This document shows, one piece after another, positions 36,001 to 39,000 of a stretch of DNA of 64,000 nucleotides. Numbering within the stretch: the stretch's first letter is position 1; every line of letters starts with the position of its first letter. The position numbers were made by a program. Origin of the DNA: an uncultured Mycoplasmatota bacterium (lineage in GTDB: Bacteria > Bacillota_I > Bacilli_A > RF39 > UBA660); NCBI GenBank assembly GCA_947643405.1, contig CANRVY010000001.1, positions 31,852-95,851 on the forward strand, read 5' to 3'.

Positions 36001-39000
36001 CAGTTGCAAAAATAGTTTGTTCTGCTTCATTACGTAAGTCTGCTTCTTCTTTTCTTTTTTCATCAGCTTCACGATTTGCTTCTGCTTCTTTTACCATTTT
36101 GTCAATTTCATCATCACTTAAGTTTGTTGAAGCAGTAATTGTAATAGATTGTTCTTTATTAGTTCCTAAATCTTTTGCTTTCACATTTACGATACCATTA
36201 GCATCAATATCAAATGTAACTTCGATTTGAGGTACTCCTCTAGGTGCTGCTGGAATATTGGTTAATTGGAAATTTCCAAGTGTTTTATTATCAGCTGCCA
36301 TTGGTCTTTCTCCTTGTAGGATATGAATATCTACAGCTGGTTGATTATCTGCAGCAGTTGAGAATACTTGTGATTTACTAGTTGGAATTGTTGTATTTCT
36401 TGGAATTAATACAGTACATACTCCACCTAATGTTTCAATACCAAGTGAAAGTGGTGTAACGTCTAATAATACGATATCATTAACGTCTCCAGTTAAAACT
36501 CCACCTTGAATGGCTGCTCCCATTGCTACTACTTCATCTGGGTTTACTTCTTTACTAGGTTCTTTTCCTAATTCTTTCTTCACTAATTCTTGTACCATCG
36601 GAATACGAGTAGAACCTCCAACTAATAATACTTTATCAATATCTTTAGCAGTTAATCCAGCATCTTTTAAAGCTTTACGAACTGGTTCCATAGTAGATTC
36701 TACTAAATCGCGAATCAAATCTTCAAATTTTGCTTTTGATAAGTTTAAATTTAAATGAAGTGGTCCATCTTCACCTTGAGATAAGAATGGAAGTGAAATT
36801 TCTGTTGAACTCATACCACTTAAATCTTTTTTGGCTTTTTCAGCAGCTTCTTTTAATCGTTGCATAGCCATAGAATCTTTATGTAAATCAACCCCATTTT
36901 CTTTTTTGAATTCGTCTGCTAGGTATTCCATAACACGGTTATCAAAGTCATCTCCACCTAAGTTGTTATTTCCGCTTGTTGATTTTACTTCGAATACACC
37001 ATCACCAGTTTCTAGAATAGAAACGTCAAATGTTCCTCCACCTAAATCGAATACCAAAATCATTTCTGATTTTTCTTGTTTATCTAATCCGTAAGCAAGC
37101 GCTGCTGCTGTTGGTTCATTGATAATTCTTTCTACTTCTAATCCAGCAATTTTACCAGCATCTTTTGTAGCTTGACGTTGTGCATCGTTAAAGTAAGCTG
37201 GAACTGTAATAACTGCTTTTGTTACTTTTTCTCCTAAATATGCTTCTGCTGTTTTCTTAAGGTCTTCAAGTACCATAGCACTAATTTCTTGTGGTGTATA
37301 TTTTTTACCATCTACTTCAAATTTATGGTTTGTACCCATTTTTCTTTTTGCACTTGATACTGTATTTGGGTTTGTCATTGCTTGGTTCTTGGCTTTGATA
37401 CCAACAATTCTTTCTCCATCTTTTTTAAATGCTACTACAGAAGGAGTTGTTCTTGAACCTTCTGGGTTTGCAATTACTTTTGCTTCTCCTCCATCATATA
37501 CGCATACACAACTATTTGTTGTTCCTAAATCAATACCTATAATTTTACTCATATTTATCACCTTTCTCTTTCTGGCAAATTCATTGCCCATGTTTCTAGT
37601 ATTTTACAATACTTGTCTTTCTCTCTTTCAAATTCAAATCTATTTCTATGATTTCCTATATCATCATAATATTCCATCGTATGTCTTAAACAAACTTTAT
37701 CATCAAATTCTTCTAAGTCAAAACATTCAGGAATATTTGGAAACTTGTATTTTTCTTTAAACAAAATATAAATTCCTGTTTTCATATTTTCTTTATCAAA
37801 AGAGATATCATATTCTTTTATTTCATAATGTCCCTCACAGCTAGCTAAAGTATAATACCCTAATTTATTTAAAGTAGATACTGCATTCGCAATCCTAGGG
37901 TCACAAGAAAATATTTTTGGATGTTCTTGATATACTTCAAATGTTTCTTTATCTATAAAGTAGCATCGATCCATTATTCACTCACTTTTACCATAGCAGG
38001 TCTAATGACTCTATCTTTATATAAATATCCTTTTTGTAATACTTCAATCACCATTCCTGGTTCCATTCCATCTACATGTGCTGTCATCACTGCTTGATGA
38101 TAAGCTGGGTCGAATGGTTTATTATTTCCATCAATGGCTTTTATTTCATATTTTCCTAAAATATTTACAAAGTTACAATAAATCATTTTAAAACCTTCTA
38201 AGAATTTTGAAAGTTCATCATCTAAATTTTCATCATCTAAAGCGATTGCTCTTTCAAAATTATCGATTGTAGAAAGCATATCTTTAATCATATCTTCTCC
38301 AGAATACTTTAGTAAACGACTGATTTCTTCATCTTTTCTTTTTCGGTAATTAATAAAATCTGCTTTGCTTACTAATAATTTATTTTCTAAATCTTTGTTA
38401 ACCTCTTTTAATTCTTCTAATTCCTGTTCTAACTTGTTTGCTTTCTTGTTTTTTCCAAATAGTTTTTTATTTTCTTTCGTTTCACAATCACATGAGTCAT
38501 CTTGATGCTCACCACAATCACATGGCTCTTCTATGCATTCTTCACATTCACATGTATTTTCTGCATCTTCACAAGAGCAATTTTCACATTCACAAGTTTC
38601 TTTTTTCAGCGTTTCCTTTTCTTCCATTTTATACCTCCTTTTTAAAATTATATCCCTATGTTTTGTTTAATATAGTCGAGTAATGCAATAACTCGGTCAT
38701 ATTCCATTCTTTTTGGTCCTATTAAAGCAATTGTTCCTTCTTCTCCACCTAATGAATATTTTGTTTTAATCACAGTAACATCATCATCAAATTCGTTTTC
38801 ACTACCAATATAAATATTAATTCCATTGTCTTCTTCCTTAATATTATTAATCATACTTTGGTCTTCAAACTTATTCATGATTTCTCTAATTTTAGTTGCA
38901 TCATCAAATTCTGGTTGCATTAAAATATTTTTTGTTCCTGTTACTCTAACATTCGCTTCTTTTGTAAAGTCACTAAATGCACTATAGAAGGCATTATAAA

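Follow-up and report, generated by a model that had tools for sequence, protein, structure and literature searches.

A gene interlocked with both grpE and dnaK in a Mycoplasmatota heat-shock operon belongs to an unnamed family with a TYW3/Taw3-like motif

We analysed a 64,000-nucleotide stretch of DNA from an uncultured gut bacterium of the Mycoplasmatota (GenBank assembly GCA_947643405.1, contig CANRVY010000001.1, forward-strand positions 31,852 to 95,851; hereafter the window, from whose first nucleotide all coordinates are counted), and in particular a small gene, here called gene X, that lies between the chaperone genes grpE and dnaK. The genes at this locus are arranged hrcA-grpE-X-dnaK-pepF-dnaJ on the minus strand. 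Gene X (37558..37974, minus strand) encodes an acidic protein of 138 amino acids (aa; pI 5.07, or 5.1 when rounded) from an unnamed family with the motif LNKKGY-T-x2-SCxGH, and was recognised from its open reading frame (ORF), its homologs, its ratio of nonsynonymous to synonymous substitution (dN/dS) and a structural model made with AlphaFold2 (AF2).

Both ends of gene X are interlocked with the adjacent genes, as read in the window and in the loci of relatives. At the upstream junction (37972..37976, minus strand) the grpE stop and the X start overlap in TAATG, in the context ...GTG AGT GAA TAATG GAT CGA..., with the ATG of X using the last A of the stop. At the downstream junction (37550..37566, minus strand; GAAAGGTGA-TAAAT-ATG) gene X ends ...CCA GAA AGA GAA AGG TGA, followed by the five nucleotides TAAAT and the dnaK ATG at 37552. 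Because X ends five nucleotides upstream of this ATG, its last codons and stop encode the dnaK Shine-Dalgarno sequence (AGG/GGTGA). The dnaK start at 37552 is common to all relatives compared, and a 621-aa dnaK ORF from 37591 is an artefact of mechanical ORF calling, not the gene. A preliminary description of this DNA had reported an ATG overlapping the grpE stop, a TGA within the dnaK Shine-Dalgarno sequence five nucleotides before the dnaK ATG (GAAAGGTGA-N5-ATG), and six cysteines that include an SCEGH stretch (residues 45-49); from the minus-strand read of both junctions, all these details are present. Given that the start overlaps the grpE stop and that the ribosome-binding site of dnaK is made up of the last codons, X would be expected to be synthesised whenever the chaperones are made, with ribosomes that finish X being delivered onto dnaK; a stoichiometric output is suggested by the same geometry.

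The genes around X are those of a heat-shock operon. They comprise hrcA (38648..39637; 329 aa from the ATG at 39637, Pfam HrcA E 1.2e-50, with a Shine-Dalgarno sequence and ATG), grpE (37974..38627; 217 aa with a Cys/Glu-rich N-terminal tail, Pfam GrpE E 1.4e-49), dnaK (35726..37552; 608 aa from the ATG at 37552, Pfam HSP70 E 1.9e-248), pepF, the M3 oligoendopeptidase F gene between dnaK and dnaJ (33881..35677; Pfam Peptidase_M3 E 2.7e-76), and dnaJ as the final gene of the cluster (32767..33864; J-domain HPD motif and CxxCxGxG repeats in the translation), all on the minus strand. The start of hrcA is probably the ATG at 39637, not the mechanically listed TTG at 39667. Upstream of hrcA, a pattern scan and the sequence itself revealed a control region (39651..39721, minus strand) in which a TTGACA-17-TATACT promoter is flanked or overlapped by two inverted repeats of the CIRCE (controlling inverted repeat of chaperone expression) type. 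This sigma-A promoter is near consensus (11/12, with a TG extension), and the CIRCE pattern was matched three times in the window, against none in 100 shuffles; the third match precedes clpB (44352-44378). In the promoter and terminator scan, no terminator was found on the minus strand from hrcA to dnaJ and promoter matches there were no better than chance level, while a terminator-like hairpin lies 3' of dnaJ (32726-32706). Thus, with a promoter and CIRCE elements upstream of hrcA and neither a terminator nor a strong promoter inside, X is a member of an HrcA/CIRCE-type heat-shock operon.

We identified relatives of X in the same slot across at least five diverged lineages (loci L001, L004-L010 and L016), at 36-80% identity. 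A word-indexed search returned 19 homologs, which are 46-100% identical and lack Pfam domains, and the grpE-dnaK placement was observed in every long contig examined for this branch of the family: P0016 (62% identical), P0018 (46%), P0024 (39%) and P0161 (36%). Further copies occupy the slot in four metagenome-assembled contigs labelled "uncultured Tenericutes/Bacilli" and in one short 1.7-kb contig labelled Muribaculaceae. The grpE stop and X start abut or overlap in L001 and L004-L010, and the dnaK Shine-Dalgarno sequence lies inside the last codons of X in L001 and L004-L009, where the ending ...PERER* corresponds to CCAGAAAGAGAAAGGTGA, or to GAAAGAAAGGAAAGATAG in the long form of the protein. 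In L010 only the grpE junction is visible, as the contig ends ~100 nt past X, and in L016 a spacer of 15 nt separates X from dnaK. Junctions kept over this range of identity make the arrangement more than a coincidence.

In nine pairwise comparisons (Nei-Gojobori method; the same pairs for all three genes), dN/dS was lowest for dnaK (0.03-0.07), followed by grpE (0.08-0.19) and X (0.15-0.37); compared with L007, X is 78% identical, GrpE 87% and DnaK 98.5%. Gene X is therefore under purifying selection, yet faster-evolving than its neighbours. AF2 folded X into a small alpha/beta domain (mean predicted local distance difference test, pLDDT, 81; predicted template modelling score 0.76), and the model of the long-form relative P0018 reached a pLDDT of 89.9. 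The preliminary description had proposed a check on relatives, and in each X-bearing locus the insertion is conserved, full-length and intact. At the level of sequence, X is thus confirmed as a genuine conserved gene with coupling geometry at both ends.

Gene X is not, however, a fixed part of this operon. Scanning metagenomes with the GrpE of the window yielded 18 related loci, 13 of which reach dnaK; X is absent from all 13, with grpE followed by dnaK after a spacer of 13-31 nt. DnaK identity to the window in these X-less loci is 71-84% (75-84% in 12 of the 13), and X-bearing lineages are equally distant (75-77% for L001, 78% for L016). In a rough DnaK tree, X carriers fall into at least two groups interspersed with non-carriers. 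From this absence and the patchy distribution of carriers, X is therefore accessory, its history being either a single gain with repeated losses or movement with the operon. The preliminary description had set, as a refuting case, an ORF absent or frameshifted in close relatives and without homologs anywhere; absence does occur, in these 13 operons, but so do intact homologs and a family of 142 clusters.

That family was delimited by running HMMER exhaustively over 1.84 billion representatives of clusters (at 50% identity), of which 142 matched at E <= 1e-3, and its profile hidden Markov model (HMM) matches all 159 sequences collected. Searches of X against Pfam, NCBIfam and PHROGs gave nothing above threshold (no hit in Pfam, only E ~0.06 in NCBIfam and PHROGs), searches of PDB sequences by phmmer and by the family profile gave nothing relevant, and a literature search found no description of this family or of a gene between grpE and dnaK. 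Literature on TYW3 in connection with phages came down to the two papers on TYW3 structure and fold cited below, and a Listeria paper that cites the TYW3 work proved irrelevant. The earlier statement that X belongs to no recognised family thus holds in so far as no curated library names it, but X does belong to a sizeable unnamed family with a TYW3/Taw3-like signature.

Across 135 domains, this signature (in X numbering) comprises D25-x2-I-A-x2-I-x2-L-N-K-K-G-Y-x-T42-x2-[SC]45-C46-x-G48-H49, followed by Y69-I-x-F72 and Y76-x-F-x3-P82-x-G-F85, and by a C-terminal L126-x2-W129-A-x2-L-P134. The best-conserved columns are D25 (128/135), T42 (132), S45 (93, with Cys in a further 37), C46 (124), G48 (119) and H49 (123). 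In X, Asp25 lies on the N-terminal helix and Thr42-x-x-Ser45-Cys46-x-Gly48-His49 at the end of the next strand. The six cysteines to which the preliminary description had drawn attention do not form a meaningful trait, with five of them variable across the 135 domains: conservation is confined to Cys46 (124/135), the position of Cys24 holds either Cys or Val, and the others are sporadic. A Cys-rich protein or metal cluster was rejected on the same ground. Most members are long forms of 150-180 aa with an extra helix-hairpin after the motif; the clade of X is a short form with ~27 residues fewer. The family as a whole is acidic (median pI 5.1).

The signature resembles the active site of TYW3/Taw3, whose catalytic and S-adenosylmethionine (SAM)-binding centre consists of a clustered Asp, an (S/T)xSSCxGR motif and a later His (PMC5311493). 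In yeast TYW3 the Asp, Cys and Arg are required, including R57 for function (PMC5311493, Currie et al. 2017), and the Cys has been proposed as a methyl relay (PMC2034487, Balaji & Aravind 2007). TYW3/Taw3 is represented by Pfam PF02676, the NCBIfam NF047731 and PRK04235 models, and PDB entries 1TLJ, 2IT2/2DRV, 2QG3 and 2DVK. The sole NCBIfam hit of X was to NF003267 (E 0.057, residues 9-65 against profile positions 8-65); this model and its PRK04235 siblings are Taw3 models, as scored with PH1069 (3.5e-65 on NF003267) and two other Taw3 proteins. Among 79 diverse family members, NF003267 was matched by 12, NF003263 by two and NF047731 ("Taw3") by one. The Pfam TYW3 family was matched by 18 of the 79 (best E 6.2e-4), every other Pfam family by at most one, and the TYW3 alignments were consistent, placing protein residues ~22-53 on profile positions 21-53.

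These matches lie below threshold but are not random, and profile-profile comparison with hhalign agreed with them. The family aligned with 12 Taw3 sequences at a probability of 85% (E 5.9e-6, 33 columns) and with the four PDB Taw3 sequences alone at 70% (E 4e-5), against E >= 0.054 in controls (one reversed, 15 column-shuffled). The Taw3 set contained database sequences only. The alignment pairs Asp25 with the invariant Taw3 Asp, and YYTLASCEGH with YFTTSSCSGR. The codons from Asp25 to Thr42-x-x-Ser45-Cys46-x-Gly48-His49, the putative TYW3-like catalytic-centre motif supported by the conserved columns, hhalign and Pfam TYW3, occupy 37828..37902 on the minus strand. The Taw3 Asp (D25 of SsTaw3), which binds the SAM sulfonium, has its counterpart in Asp25, which 128 of the 135 domains carry; in the motif (S/T)xSSCxGR, the Thr/Ser, the second Ser, the Cys and the Gly recur with identical spacing; and the two families have in common the preceding LN/IN and aromatic residue and a gap of about 20 residues between Asp and motif. 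Both are mixed alpha/beta proteins that end in a long C-terminal helix. In a Foldseek search of the X model against 350,542 PDB chains, the first two ranks, both weak, were taken by PH1069 (2IT2, 2DRV), a Taw3 structural homolog (PMC5311493). These sequence comparisons make it probable that the family shares the TYW3 active-site module by local homology; that X is actually a SAM-dependent methyltransferase, as analogy would have it, is more doubtful.

Several observations weigh against a TYW3-like reading. The significant similarity spans only ~33 residues, and the colinear match of the C-terminal helix to Taw3 is not significant (E 0.15) and weak in two members with the Taw3 HMM. In NCBIfam, X scores 13.2 bits against a cut-off of 190 (the curated cut-offs of the Taw3 models being 190-344 bits), and the best Pfam TYW3 score among members scanned individually is 16.8 bits against a cut-off of 27. 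The match of the X model to PH1069 has a TM of 0.30 and an E of 0.06, and the top 50 Foldseek PDB hits of the P0018 model, the more confident of the two, include no Taw3 structure. The essential Arg of TYW3 (SsTaw3 R51) is a His in 123 of 135 family domains (91%) and never a conserved Arg, and SsTaw3 H73, which contacts the SAM carboxylate at the end of RAGNYA strand 3, has no equivalent, there being no conserved His downstream of the motif; the conserved residues downstream of SCxGH are Y69, I70, F72 and Y76. The median pI of 5.1 contrasts with 8.6 for Taw3, which has a basic, RNA-binding surface. Finally, four members (P0166, P0167, P0169 and P0170) lack SCxGH. This subgroup retains LNKKGYYTE and the C-terminal WAxxLP (e.g. 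...YYTEAFNRARISKP), and from their sequences its members are apparently non-catalytic derivatives; the fold would therefore also have a non-catalytic use.

Other differences concern size, a loop region and hosts. The first Ser of the Taw3 "SS" is not conserved in the X family, whose members measure 138-175 aa against ~190-210 aa for TYW3. The TYW3 fold consists of an N-terminal extension and a RAGNYA domain with an inserted SHS2 domain, and the region of the SHS2 helix is a loop (YxFxxxPxGF) in the X family. The X family is hosted by bacteria, phages and mobile elements, whereas TYW3/Taw3, the SAM-dependent tRNA-yW N4-methyltransferases of class IX, belong to archaea and eukaryotes; we know of no wyosine pathway in the hosts of the X family. 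A tRNA-binding Taw3 orthologue was rejected on the missing Arg and His73, the acidic pI and the scores under cut-off. From the shortness of the module, the Arg-to-His replacement, the missing His73, the P0018 Foldseek result and the acidic pI, X is therefore not filed as a TYW3 member.

Of all structural matches to X, the best were phage proteins in BFVD, all uncharacterised, which fits the occurrence of the family in phage contigs: G3MB30, A0A2U8UIF4, A0A7T3N4Z4 and A0A8S5QQF7 (Myoviridae sp.). These proteins of 138-158 aa matched with Foldseek probabilities of 0.98-1.00 and query-normalised TM scores (TMq) of 0.41-0.54, at only 12-16% identity and E 0.009-0.03; the Bacillus phage G protein gp650 (G3MB30) reached a probability of 1.0 and a TM of 0.54. 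Secretion-chaperone-like and helix-grip folds, in which an antiparallel sheet packs on a long C-terminal helix as in X, recur among the low-ranking Foldseek hits of the X and P0018 models (YbjN 6VU7, the BamC N-domain, PR-10/START and the Aha1-domain protein 2M89). Because their TM is 0.13-0.34, their rmsd 10-20 A and their E > 0.06, none is a significant match, and none has the Asp/SCxGH arrangement.

We additionally identified family members far from chaperone genes. One lies in a phage-like contig of 107 kb that is crowded with small ORFs, one adjoins ParA, one belongs to an element that also encodes an integrase, a Mob_Pre relaxase, AbiEii and a YhcG nuclease, one adjoins NrdD and an HNH endonuclease gene in a phage-like contig, and one adjoins a Peptidase_S24-like repressor. 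Others occupy ordinary chromosomal neighbourhoods of spore-formers. Several members form the C-terminal domains of proteins of 450-1176 aa that have no informative Pfam domains, only a weak DUF6582, and relatives of P0106 lie among head-maturation-protease and virion-structural genes on IMG/VR contigs of ~250 kb. Phage genes with the X-type domain are located in L019 (7995-8723) and L020, and the phage proteins P0102, P0131 and P0106 share an N-proximal motif, FS[VI]xxMLP...GSTxGWGTKLAxTPIE. Because its gene sits among head-maturation-protease and virion-structural genes, this neighbourhood suggests that the P0106-type protein may be packaged, possibly processed by the protease, and injected. 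Neither tblastn of X and P0106 against GenBank phages nor a search of IMG/VR with P0176 returned a relative. From the phage, mobilisable-element and ParA-linked members and the phage structural neighbours, the family is thus mobilome-associated.

Our preferred reading, which we hold tentatively, is that X is a captured accessory gene of mobile-element or phage ancestry, encoding a TYW3-like cysteine enzyme that is co-expressed with the stress response. A gene from a mobile element or phage would have been captured in the grpE-dnaK slot, where it would be transcribed from the HrcA/CIRCE-controlled sigma-A promoter, and where HrcA control and the coupling to each neighbour would tie its synthesis to that of GrpE and DnaK. 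In such an enzyme Cys46, flanked by Asp25 and His49, may serve as the nucleophile or as a relay; it would transfer a group, which the analogy with TYW3 suggests is probably a methyl donated by SAM. A tRNA substrate is improbable, because the family is acidic, lacks the TYW3 Arg and second His and occurs in bacteria, in which we know of no wyosine pathway. More likely would be a protein or small molecule that matters under proteotoxic stress, which would also fit the acidic surface better; the phage-borne versions may meet their substrate after injection into the host.

The main rival to this reading, possible though in our estimate rather unlikely, is that X is a hitch-hiking mobilome gene unrelated to the chaperones, serving for instance in defence or counter-defence or as a SAM- or nucleotide-binding decoy; the slot would then be merely permissive and strongly expressed, and the Cys and His structural or metal-binding. 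The interspersion of carriers and X-less lineages on the rough DnaK tree is consistent with such a history, as are the faster evolution of X (dN/dS up to 0.37) and the relatives found in the integrase and relaxase element with AbiEii and the YhcG nuclease, in phage-like contigs and in jumbo-phage virion modules. However, both junctions are retained down to 36% identity, which argues for a benefit in this exact context, and the pattern of conserved residues is that of a catalytic centre already described, not that of a Cys4/His metal knuckle.

We consider it improbable that X is instead a non-enzymatic partner of Hsp70, whether co-chaperone, adaptor, regulator or obligate client, that binds DnaK or GrpE in a ratio set by the coupling. 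Its sandwiched position with both junctions coupled across five lineages would suit such a role, as would an acidic surface compatible with protein binding and the members that lack SCxGH, in which the fold can work without the motif; YbjN and helix-grip folds, including a bacterial Aha1-domain protein, also show a weak Foldseek likeness (TM 0.2-0.34, E > 0.06). Against this, X contains neither a J-domain nor any other domain known from co-chaperones (Pfam gave no DnaJ or GrpE match at E <= 1, and the HPD tripeptide does not occur in its 138 aa), and conservation is strongest in a polar cluster of the enzyme type (D, T, S, C, G, H) rather than in a surface patch. The candidacy as co-chaperone, regulator or client put forward in the preliminary description is accordingly not favoured: X is absent from 13 related operons whose DnaK is 71-84% identical, and most family members are encoded away from chaperone genes, in phages and mobile elements. 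A core or dedicated co-chaperone is unlikely.

That X is non-functional, a chance ORF or decaying remnant kept open by the grpE stop and the dnaK ribosome-binding site, is effectively refuted: the ...PERER* codons are indeed constrained by the dnaK Shine-Dalgarno sequence and no curated family is matched above threshold, but every X-bearing locus has an intact full-length ortholog, dN/dS is well under 1 across the whole ORF, and 142 clusters share invariant internal columns, with AF2 models at pLDDT 81 and 90.

Returning to the captured TYW3-like enzyme, sequence comparison is best read as an apparent TYW3-like active-site module set in a new scaffold, which is smaller, acidic and found in bacteria and phages. 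In PMC5311493 and PMC2034487, TYW3/Taw3 is described from archaea and eukaryotes only. A bolder extension, to which we give little credence, is that the family is the first branch of the TYW3 (class IX) superfamily known from bacteria and phages, in which the Arg-to-His replacement and acidity would accompany a non-tRNA substrate; in these gut Bacilli it would covalently modify, or relay a group to, a DnaK or GrpE component or client under heat shock, and jumbo phages would package the domain in their virions to modify a host target upon injection. If the TYW3 link is true, a compact bacterial or phage relative would offer a tractable system for class IX chemistry, and stress operons, mobile elements and jumbo-phage virions would have a new enzyme activity in common. 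To our knowledge, TYW3/Taw3 is the least understood class of SAM methyltransferase, the mechanism of its cysteine included. If the link fails, what stays is a sizeable and well-delimited domain family that has a clear signature and a candidate catalytic triad (Asp25, Cys46, His49). The gene order hrcA-grpE-dnaK is among the most conserved of Gram-positive bacteria; it is unusual to find within it a conserved gene that is coupled to both neighbours, and such a gene would mark a protein made whenever Hsp70 is made.

Among the extended dnaK operons of Firmicutes, that of Bacillus subtilis offers a comparison: according to a report attributed to Homuth et al. in 1997, it is said to be the heptacistronic operon hrcA-grpE-dnaK-dnaJ-prmA-rsmE-mtaB. 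There, as in the window, genes of SAM-using modification enzymes are associated with HrcA/CIRCE-controlled chaperone genes, in B. subtilis by co-transcription. The B. subtilis extras are universal housekeeping enzymes of Rossmann or radical-SAM fold encoded 3' of dnaJ; gene X, in contrast, is an accessory gene of a different fold, placed between grpE and dnaK and coupled to both. Immediately upstream of hrcA in the window are genes for a MiaB/MtaB-like radical-SAM methylthiotransferase (UPF0004 and Radical_SAM) and for a DUF3419 protein (the BtaA-like SAM enzyme family), and a Fic-domain gene lies just upstream of clpB (39751-41031, 41091-42059 and 44403-45242, respectively, all on the minus strand). 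From these three neighbours, SAM-using and protein-modifying genes thus cluster at the heat-shock genes.

The position of pepF between dnaK and dnaJ is kept in L001-L004, with an extra Bro-N gene ahead of dnaJ in L004. In L001 (6514-8335) the dnaK that follows the X homolog was called as two ORFs (300 and 311 aa); L002, otherwise identical, has an intact dnaK of 610 aa, and the split is probably an assembly or sequencing frameshift. The N-terminus of GrpE in the window (38478-38627, minus strand) is a metallothionein-like tail of ~50 aa, ETCECENCSCEDAENTCECEECIEEPCDCGEHQDDSCDCE, and Cys-rich tails (up to 18 Cys), or His-rich ones in some relatives, recur across this bacterial group, including L007, L016, L021, L028, L030 and L037. 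A link between X and the Cys-rich GrpE tail was rejected, as relatives with and without X both have Cys- or His-rich tails.

Elsewhere in the window, two T-box leaders (26289-26468 and 47766-47948, minus strand) were detected at the Rfam gathering score, which fits a host of the Firmicutes/Bacilli type. Two large proteins (27695-30322 and 31134-32558, minus strand) combine type IV pilin-like N-terminal methylation motifs with bacterial Ig-like domains, and one of them also contains a glycine-rich domain of the ALK/LTK type (E 5e-92), unusual for a bacterial protein.

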